This document shows positions 14,323 through 21,130 of a stretch of 64,000 bases of DNA, one piece after another. The notes under the pieces are model-generated. The model made no database searches, was not told the DNA's origin, and saw nothing but the letters and a program-made list of their open reading frames with translations. Positions within the stretch are counted from its first letter, which is position 1, and every line of letters begins with the position of its first letter. The translations under genes and the position numbers were made by a program. This DNA comes from a virus, in IMG/VR virus record IMGVR_UViG_3300002131_000090, positions 64,001 through 128,000 of that record; one strand, 5' to 3'.

Positions 14323-14354
14323 TGACACTTTATATAAACTGCGCACTAAATGGA

Positions 14355-15086
14355 TCAAACTCGGTCCGAGTCTGACTTTCTGTAAATTACTTCAACCCAG
14401 TCAGTCCTTCCGTTTAGAGGATTTTTACTAATATGTGATATATCATATAGTTCAAAGTTATACGGTATAATAAGTTTTTCAAATTCTAAAAAACTAATAC
14501 GTGTTTCGTATAAATCGTATAAATTTAATTCGCTAACTATTATGTCAGTGTTATTTAAAATGGACGACGCACCTTCTAAAATTAAAAGTTCAGCGCCCTG
14601 TACATCCATTTTTAAAATATCGACCTTTGTAATATTTGAATCTTTTAAACAATTATCAAGCGTATCTACAGCAACCGTTTCAGTAGTATTATTAAAGAAA
14701 TTATGATGTCCTTCTTCGGGGCGATTGACTGCTATTGAATCAGTACTAAGTTTGTTAAGATTAAAAAAACTACTCAACATTATTTGATGATGATTAACAT
14801 TAAACTCACTAGTTCCTTGAAAATTTGATAATGCAATATTATATAATGTTACATCAGTATAGTGTTGTGTATTTTCTTTTAAATAATTAAACGACTGCAA
14901 TACAGGCTCAAAACTATGTATAATTGCCAAAGGCCATAGTGATTTAAAATAGTCAACACTTTGTCCTATATTTGCACCGGCATCAATAATAACAGGATTT
15001 TTAGTATGTACTAAACTTTTTAATAAATTACCTTTATTAAATTTTTCTTTAGAAATTTCACTACGAGTATGTTCCGGAGTATACAT
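14355..15086 (-). CDS. FkbM-family SAM-dependent methyltransferase
   Basis: IIDAGANIG, SFEP, DILKMDVQGAE. Confidence 0.92.
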   Translation of the reverse strand: MYTPEHTRSEISKEKFNKGNLLKSLVHTKNPVIIDAGANIGQSVDYFKSLWPLAIIHSFEPVLQSFNYLKENTQHYTDVTLYNIALSNFQGTSEFNVNHHQIMLSSFFNLNKLSTDSIAVNRPEEGHHNFFNNTTETVAVDTLDNCLKDSNITKVDILKMDVQGAELLILEGASSILNNTDIIVSELNLYDLYETRISFLEFEKLIIPYNFELYDISHISKNPLNGRTDWVEVIYRKSDSDRV

Positions 15087-16149: not shown

Positions 16150-16846
16150 CAAACATCCATTTCGTTTTTCTTTTATATAATACGCAACTGTCATTAACAT
16201 ACACTGCTTTATTTTTTAATTCAAATTTAACTATAGGATCAAGTTCAAGAGGTAATGCCCACGAATTATTCTTAATGTTTATACACTCTTTATACACAAT
16301 TTCCTGTTCCGCAGCGTTTCTGATACTTCGAGGATGAGTAATTGCAGTACTTGATAGAAAATAAAGATCGTTGCAATTAAACTCTGCAGTTGATATATCA
16401 TTGAAAGATACATCATTAAAATCGGATATTACAGTGTTACTGTAATCAGTAATTATTACGTCTACCTTATCAGTATATTGCCCAAGAAAGGACAATCTAG
16501 TTTGTCCTGGGTGTAATGCAACTTTTTTATTCTTAAAGTAGTGAATATTTAAAGGATGCAGTAGTTTACATCCTTTTTTTAGATCATCTAATATTCGAAA
16601 AAATGAATATAATTTAACTATACTGTCAGTATCAATTGTAGCATTATTACTATAAACTAACGTACTATGTTTAAATACAGAATGTATATCACCAGCTATT
16701 TTCTTTTGAATATTTCTTTTTAAAAAAATATTATTAGTGTCTTCTAACGTTAATTTAGCAATATATGTATTTGTATTATGCATACTATCAAACTCGTTAG
16801 TTAGATTTACGAAATGCAAATAATCATTTAATTTAATTATGCTCAT
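16142..16846 (-). CDS. Hypothetical protein (HPGxxR motif)
   Basis: 234-aa ORF coupled to neighbours; HPLNIH...LHPGQTR is reminiscent of ParB/Srx-like folds but not conclusive. Confidence 0.55.
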   Translation of the reverse strand: MSIIKLNDYLHFVNLTNEFDSMHNTNTYIAKLTLEDTNNIFLKRNIQKKIAGDIHSVFKHSTLVYSNNATIDTDSIVKLYSFFRILDDLKKGCKLLHPLNIHYFKNKKVALHPGQTRLSFLGQYTDKVDVIITDYSNTVISDFNDVSFNDISTAEFNCNDLYFLSSTAITHPRSIRNAAEQEIVYKECINIKNNSWALPLELDPIVKFELKNKAVYVNDSCVLYKRKTKWMFDV

Positions 16847-17910
16847 TTAAATTGTTCCCCAAATGGATCAAATTCGGCGCCGCATTTCATTGAGCATACT
16901 TTTAATTTGCCAGAGGCACAACTTGGTTTACTCCAGCTATCTTGTATTCTATCAAATATACCAGTAGCAAATACTGACTCTAATCCGTTACGTGCATCTA
17001 ACACACTTTTATTAGGAATAAAATCCCATATCTGTTCTACTTTAGGATCTTTATGCCACCATTTATACATACGGCCCGCAGTCCAACAACACGGTAATGC
17101 CAGACCTTCTGCTGTAATAAACAAACTGTTGTCTTTTTTAACTTTACAAATAATAGGTGCAGCATCATAGTATGCATCCATACTTCCGTATTTGTTAATA
17201 ATAACGTCTTGTTTTTTAAGTGCAGCATTTTGATATTTTTCATCTGGCTTTTTAAGTTCTGTTGTTTCGTTGCCTTTACGATCAACTGCTTGATGCTTGT
17301 CTTTAGGCTCTACCTTTGATGTAACAAATCTACCAGTTTTTTTAGCAACAAATTTTTCAAATCCCCATTTACTAGCAAGTGCTTCTGCTTCTTCTACTTG
17401 ATGTTGATTGTGTTCAAATATTAAAAAGTCCCAACGTGCTCTGCCGCCTGCTTTAATAAACGCTTTTATGTTGCGCTCTACATTAGTCCAACTAACGCCT
17501 TGACGATATATATGATTGGTGTCTTTTAATCCGTCAACACTAAAAATAACTGCTCCATTGCTGCCGATAGTTTTAGCAAGTGCATGCCACCATATTGTGT
17601 TTTTAGCACCAGCATTAGTGTTCATGCTTAACCACATTTTAGGATTGTGATCTCTAAAATATGTAAAGATTTCTAAAGTATCTCGTGCAATAATAGGATC
17701 GCCTAAGTTTCCGCACATATACATAGTATCTAACTGTGAAATAAATTCTGGCAGGAATATCTTTTTACAATCTTCAATAGTAAGTTCATCTAAATTAATG
17801 TGCGGATTGACACCTTTACCGTTCATATTACGATCACACATAGGACAACTAGCTTGACAGTTTTGCGTAACTTCTAAGTGTATACTTCTAATATCTTCGT
17901 ACTTATACAT
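16843..17910 (-). CDS. Radical SAM protein with C-terminal Twitch/SPASM-like region
   Basis: CQASCPMC, CGNLGDP, SVDG; C-terminal ICK...PCC...CSMKC. Confidence 0.9.
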   Translation of the reverse strand: MYKYEDIRSIHLEVTQNCQASCPMCDRNMNGKGVNPHINLDELTIEDCKKIFLPEFISQLDTMYMCGNLGDPIIARDTLEIFTYFRDHNPKMWLSMNTNAGAKNTIWWHALAKTIGSNGAVIFSVDGLKDTNHIYRQGVSWTNVERNIKAFIKAGGRARWDFLIFEHNQHQVEEAEALASKWGFEKFVAKKTGRFVTSKVEPKDKHQAVDRKGNETTELKKPDEKYQNAALKKQDVIINKYGSMDAYYDAAPIICKVKKDNSLFITAEGLALPCCWTAGRMYKWWHKDPKVEQIWDFIPNKSVLDARNGLESVFATGIFDRIQDSWSKPSCASGKLKVCSMKCGAEFDPFGEQFK

Positions 17911-18172
17911 CCATTACCAACTTTATATCTTTGCCAGGGCCGCCAACACTTGGCAGGAAAAAGTATTCTGCCATATACCACTTGATTACTGCACGATACC
18001 ATTTTTGACTGTCGTGATGTGCTTGTTTATTAAACTGGTGTATATTATTATTAGTGGTCTGCATTGTAGCAAGTGCTCTTGCACTTTCAAGTTGCAATCT
18101 TCTAACTGAAAACTGATCTAACAATACTTCAATACTTTCGTCTCTAAGACGATCACTGTTATTTAAATCCAA
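17903..18172 (-). CDS. Hypothetical protein (89 aa, TTG start)
   Basis: Overlaps the downstream gene start; its TTG start lies inside the duplicated segment. Confidence 0.6.
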   Translation of the reverse strand: MDLNNSDRLRDESIEVLLDQFSVRRLQLESARALATMQTTNNNIHQFNKQAHHDSQKWYRAVIKWYMAEYFFLPSVGGPGKDIKLVMDV

Positions 18173-18263
18173 TTCTCATAAACCTTGTGTACTTTTCTAG
18201 TTCTAGACTTCCTTTATATAATACATTAGTTAGAGGAGTTTGTCTACTAAAATCTTCAAGATT
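18159..18263. repeat. Diverged direct repeat, copy B (105 bp)
   Basis: 91/105 nt identical to 18958..19062 by manual alignment, no indels. Confidence 0.95.
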
Positions 18264-18266
18264 CAT
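18159..18266 (-). pseudogene. 35-aa mini-ORF: relic C-terminus of the methyltransferase at 18958..19803
   Basis: MNLEDFSRQTPLTNVLYKGSLELEKYTRFMRIGFK*, compared with DLNNFSRQTPLNNVLYEGSLELEKYTRFMRIGFK* in the parent. Its ATG overlaps the sulfotransferase TGA (ATGA). Confidence 0.8.
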
Positions 18267-18961
18267 TTTAGTTTTATACGACCGTTATTATTATTTAAAT
18301 ACGGGTGTGACAATACAGTTAACATTTTTTCACCCCCTATCTGCCTAAGTCTGTTATAATTAATTAAAATGCTATCTTTTGGCTGAGATTTTTTTATATT
18401 ATTTTTTTTAAATGTCATTGATTGAGTATTAGATAATTTTAAATTCTTATAATCTTTATCATAGTCAAATTTTAAATCTTCGTAATAAACAATTTCATTT
18501 AACAATTTATTTTTGTGATTCCATTCAGCAAGATCTATAATACTTTGGTATCGACTTTCTAATGTAGATAAAAAATAAGTTTCATCTATAACAAATTTTT
18601 CTAAATAAGGAGTATCCGATGCTTGCCATAAATTAGTTTTTTCTGCAATTAGATTACTTATAGTTGATTCAACTAAATCTTGTCTTAATATAGATATTAT
18701 ATACCAATTGTTATTTAAAAACGCAGTTTTGTCAGCATCCGATAATCTTTTGTTGATGTTAGAAAAATGGTCTTTACACACGTTATTAGGAGTTCTTTTA
18801 ATTGTTTTAATAATACGTTTTATATATTTTTGAGAATAGCTTTCCATATGTTCGTAATTAAACGGCTCGGGGTATTTTTTAAATTTTATATTAGAATTTA
18901 CAAACATATTTAGTAAATATGTGCTACCTGTTCTAGACTGAGAAACAATTAAAATATTCAC
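18263..18961 (-). CDS. Sulfotransferase (P-loop, Stf0-like)
   Basis: 5'-PSB loop SQSRTGSTYL, EPF, 3'-PB motif ILRQDLVESTIS, VYYEDL. Confidence 0.8.
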   Translation of the reverse strand: MNILIVSQSRTGSTYLLNMFVNSNIKFKKYPEPFNYEHMESYSQKYIKRIIKTIKRTPNNVCKDHFSNINKRLSDADKTAFLNNNWYIISILRQDLVESTISNLIAEKTNLWQASDTPYLEKFVIDETYFLSTLESRYQSIIDLAEWNHKNKLLNEIVYYEDLKFDYDKDYKNLKLSNTQSMTFKKNNIKKSQPKDSILINYNRLRQIGGEKMLTVLSHPYLNNNNGRIKLK

Positions 18962-19062
18962 TTAAATCCGATCCTCATAAATCTTGTATACTTCTCTAGT
19001 TCTAGACTTCCTTCATATAATACATTATTTAGAGGAGTTTGTCTACTGAAATTGTTAAGATC
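18958..19062. repeat. Diverged direct repeat, copy A (3' end of methyltransferase)
   Basis: Matches 18159..18263. Confidence 0.95.
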
Positions 19063-19803
19063 TGCACTGCAATTTACGTGTTCGTTAACTTCAAAGTAGT
19101 TATTACTTTGCAATACTATTAGTACGTTATAAGGAAGTTTGTCATACCATTCTGCAAAATTTGGAATGTGTTCACAACTTGTATTAATAATAGTATTAGG
19201 CTTGTCTGTTATCGGATAACTCATTCTGTTGTTAGCATTACTCCAATATTGCCAAGTATGTTCATTATAGTCTATATCCATAATGTCTTGAGTTAATGAT
19301 TTAAAACGCCATTGATCAGTAAACCACGGAGCATTAAATACTTCTGCAATATTAACACAAGTAGGATCAATATCAAAACTTCTAATTTTATCTATTCTAA
19401 GATTTTTTTCAAATAACATTGTAGCAAGTGTAGCATACCATCCTGCACAAAGAAATACTGTTCCTAAATAAGGATTAATTCTTTTAAGTTCTTTAACTAG
19501 CCATAGTTTACTTTGTAGCTGTCCTCTACTAAAACAGTCATTCCATATTTCTGTTTTATTTACAAAAAAGTTTTTAAATGCTGCGGTAAATTGTGTATCA
19601 ACATAGCGATCTAACATAGGCCATAGTTTCCAAGTATTATCTTCCATAATCAATTTGCGAAGATCATCTTTATTTTCATCTGTAATTATTCTAAAGATAC
19701 TATGTAAATCGTGATCAATATATGCTCTACGCAAATCAGTTAACTTACTATTAGTTGGATATAATAACTCAAATCTATCCAATAGTTCAAATGTTTGAAG
19801 CAT
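18958..19803 (-). CDS. Putative class I SAM-dependent methyltransferase
   Basis: VFLCAGWY (motif I-like), IRSFDIDP (acidic motif II), QDI, IINTSCEH. Confidence 0.65.
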   Translation of the reverse strand: MLQTFELLDRFELLYPTNSKLTDLRRAYIDHDLHSIFRIITDENKDDLRKLIMEDNTWKLWPMLDRYVDTQFTAAFKNFFVNKTEIWNDCFSRGQLQSKLWLVKELKRINPYLGTVFLCAGWYATLATMLFEKNLRIDKIRSFDIDPTCVNIAEVFNAPWFTDQWRFKSLTQDIMDIDYNEHTWQYWSNANNRMSYPITDKPNTIINTSCEHIPNFAEWYDKLPYNVLIVLQSNNYFEVNEHVNCSADLNNFSRQTPLNNVLYEGSLELEKYTRFMRIGFK

Positions 19804-21130
19804 AAAACTGTTCCTTTAACCAATCAAAATCATTTATTAATCGTAATGCGTCTGTATTGCCTTTATTAGATTCACCGTATTTTCTGCCAAAATTAGCACC
19901 ACTAATCGCTAAATCGCCAAACGTTCTGTCATTACCTAACGTACACCACGTGTTAAGTCTAATATAAGTTTCCTCTTGTTTTTGTCTATCAATAATATTA
20001 CTGCTTAACTTGACACACTCTCTAAAAGCACTCTTCCACGTATTAAATGGGTCTGTATTAAATGCTGTGATATTAGATACAACATCTACAGTTCTAAATC
20101 GGTTGCTTATGCTAGTTGTCATATCAGGTTTGGTAATATCCATGTTGATTGTTAAATCACGTGGAAATAATTTTATACCACCATATCCATAAACAAGATC
20201 ATTTATTGGATTTTGACTTCTCCATACATGAACAATGTCTTTTTCCCAACGGTGGACCTTGAAATCAAAATCAAAATCATCTACTATTTCGGCATCACCG
20301 TCAACAATCCAAAACATGTCAGTATCACACAACTTTGCAGCAGCAATATGTGCCTGATGTATACCCTTTACTCCATGTACTCGTTTGGCATCTGGTCTTT
20401 TTTCTAAAAGTCTATTATAGTTAACGTCTGCATTAGGTTCTTGATAACTGATAAACACTACATCATAAGGCTTAGGAATACTTCCTATAACATTAATTTC
20501 TTTTCTATTTACAAGATGCTTAAACTCTATTTCTTTTTGTGTCACAGGTTTGTGCTTACTTAATAACCAAAGTCCGTTGTAAAGATCCTCGTCATCTTCT
20601 CTATGTATAAATGCGTGATTTTCATTTCTGTCATAGTTATCGTGATGCGATATATAAAACTGTTCAAAGATTTCTTGACTGACTAGGACATTTTTACTTG
20701 CAGTCCAAAACATTTCAGTAGTAGTATTTTCTAACGCATCTAGATAGTCTTTATACGAATCAACTAGAAATAAGTCAAATGTCTTTGGAGTACTAGCAAG
20801 TATGTCTACTTGTTTCTTTTTTACAAAAAATCTATGATTTATTTCGTTGTCTGTTATTATTGCATGTTTAGGTACTAAACAAACACCGTCATACGAATCT
20901 TTATTTAAAAATATATGTATGTATTCTTTACTCCAGTCATCTGGAATATAATCAAAATCAAAAGATTGTAAAACTACAATGTCATCCCACACTGCCCAAA
21001 AGAAATCAGTTAGACAAACTTTTTGTGCTTGTCTAAATGTTTTTGCATGTTTAGAGATAGGGTAGCGTTTTTTAAATTCTTTGTAATTTGTATCTAAAGG
21101 ATTTGCAGAAATAAAAATAATATCATACAT
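19787..21130 (-). CDS. Glycosyltransferase-like (GT-A) protein with three tandem related modules
   Basis: Modules begin YDIIFIS, FDLFLVD and YDVVFISY; FWAVWDD and FWIVDGD (DxD); YGYGGIKLFP; paralog of 31618..32541. Confidence 0.65.
   Translation of the reverse strand: MYDIIFISANPLDTNYKEFKKRYPISKHAKTFRQAQKVCLTDFFWAVWDDIVVLQSFDFDYIPDDWSKEYIHIFLNKDSYDGVCLVPKHAIITDNEINHRFFVKKKQVDILASTPKTFDLFLVDSYKDYLDALENTTTEMFWTASKNVLVSQEIFEQFYISHHDNYDRNENHAFIHREDDEDLYNGLWLLSKHKPVTQKEIEFKHLVNRKEINVIGSIPKPYDVVFISYQEPNADVNYNRLLEKRPDAKRVHGVKGIHQAHIAAAKLCDTDMFWIVDGDAEIVDDFDFDFKVHRWEKDIVHVWRSQNPINDLVYGYGGIKLFPRDLTINMDITKPDMTTSISNRFRTVDVVSNITAFNTDPFNTWKSAFRECVKLSSNIIDRQKQEETYIRLNTWCTLGNDRTFGDLAISGANFGRKYGESNKGNTDALRLINDFDWLKEQFYASNI

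Follow-up and report, generated by a model that had tools for sequence, protein, structure and literature searches.

In a large marine or brackish-water phage, the gene of a predicted sulfotransferase lies between two copies of the 3′ end of the methyltransferase gene that precedes it, and the second copy forms part of a small open reading frame of 35 codons (mini35). We conclude that the locus is probably a hybrid recombination joint of a sulfotransferase-carrying and a sulfotransferase-lacking relative, across which translation would be relayed via the mini-ORF. This reading starts from the anatomy of the locus, from both parental arrangements as they are found in relatives and from the identity of the junction, and it is from these that we infer the ribosome relay.

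The stretch of DNA analyzed, which will be referred to as the window (64,000 nucleotides), belongs to an IMG/VR virus record of 146.6 kb, for which CheckV gives a completeness of 41%. As related contigs reach 300-357 kb, the virus is considered to be a jumbo phage. Between 14 and 35 kb, every gene is located on the minus strand and the genes are tightly packed. The genes of the locus are transcribed in the order g447, MT281, ST232, mini35, g89 and rSAM355:

19787-21130, minus strand: g447.
18958..19803, minus strand: MT281, a class I SAM-methyltransferase-fold protein according to its AlphaFold2 model (pLDDT 89.5), a conserved anchor gene.
18958..19062, minus strand: copy A of the repeat, the functional last 35 codons of MT281, ending AAG-TGA and containing ATC-GGA, that is, no TTG.
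18263..18961, minus strand: ST232, a predicted sulfotransferase of 232 aa with a P-loop fold resembling Stf0; it begins with a GTG that overlaps the stop of MT281.
18159..18266, minus strand: mini35 (copy B of the repeat), an ORF of 35 codons; it opens with an ATG overlapping the stop of ST232 and closes 11 nt past the TTG of g89.
17903..18172, minus strand: g89, a small conserved protein of 89 aa; its reading frame starts at a TTG (18170-18172) that is embedded in the codons for the conserved Ile-Gly of the MT tail.
16843..17910, minus strand: rSAM355, a radical SAM enzyme and the next conserved anchor after g89; its start overlaps the g89 end by 8 nt.

The geometry of coupled gene pairs, with stop and start on the same strand and overlapping or only a few nucleotides apart, is found across the whole locus. 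MT281 and ST232 overlap by 4 nt, ST232 and mini35 by 4 nt, mini35 and g89 by 14 nt, g89 and rSAM355 by 8 nt, and rSAM355 and the next gene by 4 nt; overlaps of 4-17 nt between genes occur operon-wide.

The direct repeat (positions 18163-18262 and 18962-19061) is identical at 89 of 100 positions, or at 91 of 105 when aligned in codon register, and its longest unbroken identity extends over ~19 nt. The sequences flanking the two copies are without similarity (11/60 and 14/58 identical). Over the last 31 codons (codons 6-36) the copies show ten differences, eight of which are synonymous when the TGA/TAA stop is counted. Every number given in a first-pass annotation of the window (91/105 for the repeat, 8/10 synonymous differences, both start contexts and the ORF of 35 codons) was reproduced. 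Copy A and copy B share 81 of 90 nt, while any other MT tail among 90 related loci reaches at most 65 of 90; as the two copies are thus mutual nearest relatives, the repeat is not due to chance.

Each copy supplies the start codon of the gene that follows it. In copy A, the terminal AAG-TGA contains the GTG of ST232, the overlap reading GTGA; in copy B, which ends AAA-TAA, ATT-GGA gives the TTG of g89 (18172). The ATG of mini35 at position 18266 and the stop of ST232 overlap as ATGA. The context in copy A is the derived one, AGG-ATC-GGA...AAG-TGA, in which the TTG has been removed and, by direct reading, a GAGGA has been created ~10 nt ahead of the GTG start of ST232. Copy B carries the ancestral AGA-ATT-GGA and is closer than copy A to the tails of all relatives, with the exception of one tie.

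Comparing the 90 related loci that were collected revealed three arrangements of MT and g89. Most relatives carry the methyltransferase gene directly followed by g89, with ST absent (32 unique junctions), an order for which the first-pass annotation had proposed to search in related genomes, and their methyltransferase genes end like copy B; a copy-A-like end would have spoken against that annotation. In the second arrangement, represented by L084-L088, L089 and L090, MT is followed by ST and by g74, the homologue of g89 in these relatives; the tail is single, the genes are linked by ATGA overlaps, ST starts at an ATG within AAATGA, and the ATG of g74 overlaps the ST stop. The sulfotransferases of this group are 61% (L084-L088), 60% (L089) and 33% (L090) identical to that of the window. 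In the third arrangement (L011, L061 and L067), other genes are located between MT and g89, and g74 has its own ATG, which overlaps the upstream stop. The lineage of the window is the only one among the ST-bearing lineages that retains the tail-embedded TTG for g89, as a copy of the tail still stands in front of this gene. Two solutions after insertion are therefore observed, either a new start or a carried-over tail. The comparison also supports the view that ST represents an accessory gene at the site between MT and g89, as judged from gene order and sequence.

The start of g89 itself is well conserved. In most relatives, the homologues (n=312) are 74 aa long. All 32 unique MT-g89 junctions contain ATTGGA, with the TTG 11 nt ahead of the MT stop and the g89 frame open from the TTG onwards, and the Ile codon is ATT in all 34 tails that supply a TTG compared to 9 of 14 other tails (Fisher p 0.0012, calculated with kinship ignored). 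From this conservation and codon bias we conclude at the sequence level that the TTG start of g89 is real and conserved, and as copy B is the copy that carries it, the assignment of copy B as the old-type end in the first-pass annotation is confirmed. An Atlas search with g89 as query yielded no usable match.

Evidence for the origin of the locus comes from the bases at the end of the sulfotransferase gene:

18256..18271, minus strand: junction, consisting of the ST end and ATG AAT CTT GA; it matches the ST/g74 junction of L089 over 17 nt.

Across the ST end, the window reads CTAAAATGAATCTTGA, then AGATTTTAGT. The respective sequence of L089 is CTAAAATGAATCTTGA, then TAATTTAACA, which runs on as g74 (M-N-L-D-N-L-T-L-R-Q). 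The identity of 17 nt includes the bases just upstream; beyond it, the window switches in phase to the MT tail, which reads V-D-L-E/D-D-F-S-R-Q in relatives. The L089-type junction and the MT tail share a microhomology, (A/G)ATCTTGA(A), of ~7-8 nt in the same codon phase. These alignments show mini35 to be a chimera: the beginning of a g89 homologue that has been displaced (ATG, ~11 bases) continues in frame into the terminal ~32 codons of an MT gene. Because of the 17-nt identity to the ST/g74 junction of L089, its ATG must have been inherited together with ST and is not a new gain. The proposal of the first-pass annotation that copy B was reopened by a new ATG is thus not borne out, as this codon is the start of the g89 homologue of ST-carrying relatives (L084, L089), fused in frame.

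A single crossover is the simplest account of this structure. An ST-carrying genome (..MT-ST-ATG of g74) would have been linked to an ST-less genome whose breakpoint lay 32 codons from the MT end, by one unequal, illegitimate crossover between co-infecting relatives that was guided by the microhomology of ~7-8 nt. The product would retain the full MT with copy A, the ST gene, a chimeric ORF of 35 codons and the native TTG start of g89. Copies A and B would then be the orthologous MT ends of two close relatives and, as they would have diverged as such, the excess of synonymous differences is explained without selection on the remnant. It is most simply in this sense that both copies evolved as coding sequence, as had been claimed from the repeat alone.

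The further history of the site appears to have been more complex. Identity to L091, L034 and L035 is 50-65% in copy B, increases to 90-100% just past the MT stop (~18152) and drops again at the g89/rSAM overlap, and within the lineage of the window, L083 and L092 show divergent patches beginning in g89. As the history of g89 differs from that of copy B, several exchanges with breakpoints at gene ends must have occurred at this site. Which side was donor and which was recipient cannot be told, and conversion between A and B, as suggested by the variant L097 described below, may have homogenised the copies.

The structure was found in all contigs obtained by look-up of ST (24) and of MT (23) in JGI and ENA assemblies, two sets that may overlap, the only exceptions being a contig broken off at the MT stop and another interrupted by a scaffold gap. 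It is also present on one Tara scaffold, and records of exactly this 35-aa product exist for 94 contigs. The contigs are 99.8-99.99% identical to the window, and copy B is invariant in almost all of them; the population is nearly clonal, and selection on the mini-ORF is not measurable within the lineage. L100 and L102 differ from the window in gene calling only, and an apparent insertion of 155 nt in L101 turned out to be an N-filled scaffold gap whose end is repeated. The variant L097 has five differences in 2498 nt, of which four cluster in a 35-nt stretch of copy B; at three of these, the base is that of copy A. This conversion-like patch in copy B suggests from the sequence pattern that the copies, or close relatives, exchange A-type sequence. 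L096, a 202-kb contig whose sample also yielded an intact contig, is without ST; its deletion (17406-18961) reaches from the final bases of copy A into the middle of rSAM355 and is unrelated to the repeats. This contig also is without the 16845-14368 block and contains a single copy of the rSAM355 end.

In view of this agreement between independent assemblies, the probability that the locus is an artefact joining two strains, the objection which the first-pass annotation itself had raised, is practically negligible. Repeats of ~100 nt can mislead assemblers; however, the same structure was obtained from numerous samples, in different projects (JGI, ENA, Tara) and with different assemblers, entries with the exact proteins also exist in Logan, some of the contigs are 154 kb long and the exact protein has also been recorded from a 297-kb contig, and the copies differ at 11/100 positions, which is enough to resolve them. 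The same contigs bear on the suggestion that the repeats act as an on/off switch, whereby recombination between A and B would excise 799 bp and restore the MT-g89 order, so that sulfation would vary within populations. The repeats are indeed direct and 89% identical, excision would restore a functional MT-g89 junction, and the patch in L097 shows that copies or close relatives exchange sequence. Nevertheless, we regard such a switch as very unlikely. ST is present in all 24 and 23 contigs read, the tail is of the A type in 9/9 members of the MT cluster, the only ST-less strain (L096) arose by an unrelated deletion that ends mid-rSAM355, and the longest unbroken identity between A and B is only ~19 nt. 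An A-left/B-right deletion junction gave 0 matches in pattern scans of metagenome and viral contigs, scans of low power in which the intact-locus control found one Tara scaffold only. Thus, flanking direct repeats are present as a switch requires, but the excised form was found neither in the 47 contig look-ups and the cluster members nor in these two scans, and the excision suggested by the first-pass annotation received no support.

With respect to the origin of the repeat, the crossover has to be weighed against the insertion of a cassette, in which ST and a replacement MT end were put in by two crossovers and the ATG later arose or was selected. Most relatives are without ST, the ancestral TTG context sits in copy B, and the GC content of ST is distinct, all of which would fit such an insertion. 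We nevertheless consider it unlikely, since the ATG and its surroundings match the ST/g74 junction of L089 over 17 nt and therefore came with ST, and since one unequal crossover yields the same structure. What remains of the cassette model in the first-pass annotation is that ST is accessory at this site; a two-ended insertion is not required, and the donor is not assignable. Highly improbable, in our opinion, is a duplication of the tail in situ followed by divergence of the copies under purifying selection, according to which the 35-aa peptide would have a function of its own. A and B are mutually closest and 8/10 of their differences are synonymous, as a duplication would predict, but this bias is expected anyway for orthologous MT ends that diverged before they were joined, and no simple mechanism places the tail beyond ST with the start of g74 ahead of it. 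Furthermore, the helix and the last two strands to which the peptide corresponds in the MT model would be unlikely to fold alone, and variants of the mini-peptide (N13/E18, E18 and G33E) are in circulation. A transposon or IS element with target-site duplication was rejected: such elements encode a transposase, are bounded by terminal inverted repeats and duplicate 2-14 bp of their target, whereas here the duplication comprises 105 nt and is diverged, its ends lack inverted repeats, and ST is the sole gene inside.

For the hybrid joint, the question arises how g89 would be translated. Ribosomes ending ST would reinitiate at the ATGA, read the mini-ORF and stop 11 nt past the TTG. The mini-ORF would thereby copy the termination-reinitiation geometry that is given by MT in ST-less relatives, g89 and the downstream operon would stay coupled, and the 35-aa peptide would have no function of its own. 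Several features are consistent with this. The initiation context of the mini-ORF is that of the conserved gene g74 in relatives, and its stop has the same spacing to the TTG, 11 nt, as the MT stop in ST-less relatives. In the absence of the mini-ORF, the gap between the ST stop and the TTG would be 91 nt. In reporter work, termination-reinitiation coupling was nearly abolished at a stop-start distance of ~20 nt (PMC10666635; also PMC6728339). It is therefore plausible, as far as the sequence allows, that the mini-ORF preserves stop/start coupling to the embedded TTG. The predicted RNA fold of the region comprising the mini-ORF and the g89 start was unremarkable (z -0.47), giving no evidence of structure there.

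A comparable layout was found in L024/L025. In these loci, the MT tail gives the TTG start of a radical SAM gene of 409 aa, which is followed by an ORF of 46 codons (mini46). This ORF is composed of the ATG and five codons of a displaced rSAM355 homologue, an internal rSAM355 fragment and a remnant of 17-20 codons of the MT tail, which ends 11 nt past the TTG of a 400-aa rSAM paralogue; both joins are in frame. This independent scar with the same layout supports a coupling role of such ORFs, although it does not prove it. With the join in the window, this makes three joins that are all in frame, for which the random probability is ~1 in 27; at n=2 loci, this is suggestive and could be due to chance.

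A further remnant is located downstream of rSAM355 in the window:

14330..14365, minus strand: second scar, 36 nt left over from the 3′ end of rSAM355, agreeing with 16843-16878 at 27/36 positions and with the stop in register; no ORF.

It stands after a four-gene block. The gene behind it starts at an ATG of its own, 22 nt further downstream, and a relay is therefore not needed at this position.

Alternatively, the scar might be neutral: it would have the same origin, but the mini-ORF would be irrelevant and the TTG of g89 would be used independently, via a weak internal ribosome-binding site or another route. We rate this as rather unlikely. It would fit that the lineage is near-clonal, leaving no time for an open frame to decay, that an in-phase microhomology gives an in-frame join automatically, that the scar at 14330-14365 is not an ORF and that three amino-acid variants of the mini-peptide circulate. 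However, direct reading revealed no clear Shine-Dalgarno sequence at a usable distance from the TTG, all remaining g89 starts of the family overlap with a stop upstream, and an independent in-frame relay ORF with the same layout exists in L024/L025. The remnant at 14330-14365 is no counterexample, as the gene downstream of it has its own ATG. Whether the coupling extends to a more general rule, namely that scar mini-ORFs are selectively retained as translation relays and that in phage operons, genes whose start lies within the 3′ end of the gene upstream survive an insertion only via a new overlapping ATG or via a translated old end, is more speculative; we consider such a rule possible, but would assign it somewhat less than even chances. 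If it applied, a translated remnant would be opened by the start codon of the displaced gene, and mini35 and mini46 would be the first natural examples of such relays, counterparts of engineered bicistronic leaders.

Phage genomes that have become mosaic through illegitimate or homeologous recombination at gene boundaries typically contain accessory genes between conserved anchors, joints at the ends of genes and leftover pieces of genes (PMC2327257, PMC3029335), and overall the locus appears to be fairly ordinary phage gene shuffling and no new kind of genetic system. With mosaic phages such as lambdoid phages and mycobacteriophages it has in common an accessory gene that is present or absent between anchors, breakpoints at gene ends, a short microhomology and remnants of a flanking gene. 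It differs in that the remnant is in frame, comprises 105 nt, holds the start of the next gene and is opened by the start of the displaced orthologue. Coupled overlapping gene pairs likewise show ATGA or GTGA overlaps and a start a few nucleotides ahead of the preceding stop, and their coupling depends on a very short distance between stop and start (PMC6728339, PMC10666635, PMC12548453); in contrast to such pairs, the upstream partner of g89 in the putative coupling is a remnant of 35 codons and no real gene. Slightly new is that a scar keeps an embedded start in service and is itself opened by a displaced start, twice independently.

By analogy, the mini-ORF would act like the leader of a bicistronic design, a short ORF whose stop overlaps or lies just past the target start and which delivers ribosomes to it. 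In synthetic biology, such leader cistrons serve to standardise initiation (as reported by Mutalik et al. in 2013). Unlike these, mini35 is a natural product of recombination, contains no designed Shine-Dalgarno sequence, and the start codon it serves is TTG. Phage morons (as reported by Juhala et al. in 2000) carry their own promoter and terminator. ST resembles them as an extra gene of distinct base composition between genes that are adjacent in relatives (GC content of 22-25% for ST compared to 29-39% for its flanks), but it is without promoter or terminator of its own and is joined to both neighbours by stop/start overlaps, and it is therefore not classified as a moron: around ST, 14 promoter-like sites were counted with 13.7 expected, and 0 terminators.

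At this locus, one step of phage gene shuffling is recorded with unusual clarity: both parental arrangements, the exact junction and the microhomology can all be read. The locus also shows how an operon of overlapping stops and starts can accommodate an additional gene without the following gene being silenced. Should the relay be real, annotators should not discard such tiny ORFs, and the design principle would be one that is used in synthetic biology.

For MT281, at least 500 PDB matches at E ≤ 0.001 were obtained with the model, and the top matches listed (ranks to 49) were SAM-dependent methyltransferases or SAM-fold relatives; the model displays the Rossmann-like fold of seven strands characteristic of this class. 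The repeated 35 residues correspond in the model to a helix and the final two β-strands of the fold. MT281 gave no match in Pfam, and the MT profile gave none against the sequences in PDB. Homologues with 43-76% identity were detected in 33 IMG/VR loci. A DNA search of INPHARED phages resulted in no match, and a search of phage proteins identified distant MT homologues only, in Ralstonia phage RsoM2USA and Pelagibacter phage Mosig. Scans of MT, ST, mini35 and g89 against Pfam and PHROGs yielded nothing.

For ST232, the best Pfam hit was PF09037 (Stf0) with an E-value of 0.12 and 12.3 bits, below the cut-off of 22. Among its 51 homologues, matches at E ≤ 0.01 to Sulfotransfer_3 (6/51), Sulfotransfer_1 (3/51) and Stf0 (1/51) were found, and in PDB the family profile built from these 51 homologues matched nothing but sulfotransferases, with marginal E-values (NodH 0.0025, SULT1B1, CurM, Stf0). 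The ST232 model (pLDDT 96) has its best fold match in Stf0 (1tex, E 1.8e-5). The top four Foldseek matches are all Stf0 1tex (E 1.8e-5 to 2.5e-4, TM ~0.46); SULT7A1, SULT1A3 and the CurM sulfotransferase are listed as well, and P-loop kinases score similarly. Across the family of 51 homologues, R10, G12, R93 and S102 never vary, and S13 and H65 each occur in at least 90% of the sequences. We take these residues to be the 5′-phosphosulfate-binding loop, the R..S pair binding the 3′-phosphate and the catalytic His. The N-terminus reads S-Q-S-R-T-G-S-T and contains no G-K, and is thus without the Walker A motif G-K-S/T of kinases. With PAPS-dependent sulfotransferases of the Stf0 and Sulfotransfer_3 type, ST232 shares the fold, the N-terminal R-x-G-S loop, the central R..S pair and the conserved His; unlike them, it reaches no Pfam threshold, and its identity to solved structures is 14-16%. 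Taken together, sequence motifs and model make sulfotransferase a reasonable prediction at the family level for ST232, with a putative activity. A scan of IMG/VR for ST relatives, which possibly did not cover near-identical records, returned none.

Upstream of the locus, the window contains tail-fibre genes (a Collar domain and a weak match to Peptidase_G2), and the locus itself is surrounded by a long series of radical SAM/SPASM, 2OG-oxygenase and FkbM-methyltransferase genes, which form an island of tailoring enzymes.

Joints at which gene ends have been duplicated, lost or exchanged, and features adjoining them, occur at several points around the sulfotransferase gene ST232 and among the related loci compared with the window:

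L096:4743-5401, deletion joint at which window position 18962 is joined to 17405
Window 17910-18152, minus strand, exchange module in g89, a small conserved gene
Window 18139-18151, perfect hairpin with a 5-bp stem and a 3-nt loop (CGUCU-UAG-AGACG)
Window 14330-14365 and 16843-16878, second duplicated gene end, the 3′ end of the radical SAM gene rSAM355
Window 16846-14355, four-gene block ahead of the remnant of the rSAM355 end
L024 7830-7970, within L024:5920-10225, 46-codon scar ORF, also in L025

A strain without the sulfotransferase gene is represented by the 202-kb contig L096, which is 99.98% identical to the window upstream of the deletion joint. There, the 3′ end of the methyltransferase gene MT281 (copy A) runs directly into the middle of rSAM355, so that ST232, the 35-codon scar ORF mini35, g89 and the 5′ 505 nt of rSAM355 are lost and the methyltransferase acquires a new ending, ..G-F-N-I-K. 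Downstream of the joint the identity to the window is only 84-94%, which makes this strain a recombinant. In the same strain the four-gene block is absent and the rSAM355 end is present in one copy; L096 therefore represents an empty site for the block. In the window, the final 12 codons of rSAM355 are duplicated beyond the block with 27 of 36 nucleotides the same and the stop in register, the remnant lacking a start codon.

Judged by nucleotide comparison, g89 behaves as a separately exchanged module. In comparison with L091, L034 and L035 it is 90-100% identical inside the gene only, with a sharp fall at either gene end. The hairpin, located 18 nt downstream of the TTG start codon, coincides with the left breakpoint of the module and is kept in all three relatives. 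In L092 and L083, which belong to the window's lineage, divergent patches cover part of g89 and extend into rSAM355, while the upstream DNA is identical. One strain of the lineage (L083:1366-2445) has, in place of rSAM355, a version sharing just 67% identity with it, which gene calling divides into two ORFs (240 and 84 aa); the flanking genes are still 100% identical.

The 46-codon ORF of L024 and L025 is a scar independent of mini35. Three pieces make it up: the start of the rSAM355 homologue, a fragment from the interior of rSAM355 and a remnant of a methyltransferase tail. On either side of it lies a radical SAM gene; the two are paralogues of 409 and 400 aa with 52.5% identity, and each has as its start codon a TTG located inside a methyltransferase tail.

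The GC content of ST232 (window 18263-18961) is 22-25% compared to 29-39% for the neighbouring genes, a composition in keeping with an accessory gene whose history differs from theirs. Tandem pairs of methyltransferase paralogues were observed among L008, L009, L010, L014, L015, L022 and L033, the extra copy sharing 27-40% identity with MT281; some of these relatives have no recognisable g89 after the methyltransferase, and the ATTGGA context is still present. Finally, in one strain (L077/L099) g447 (window 19787-21130) is broken into an ORF of 309 aa and another of 154 aa, with five differences to the window; this may be a glycosyltransferase-like gene carrying a frameshift.
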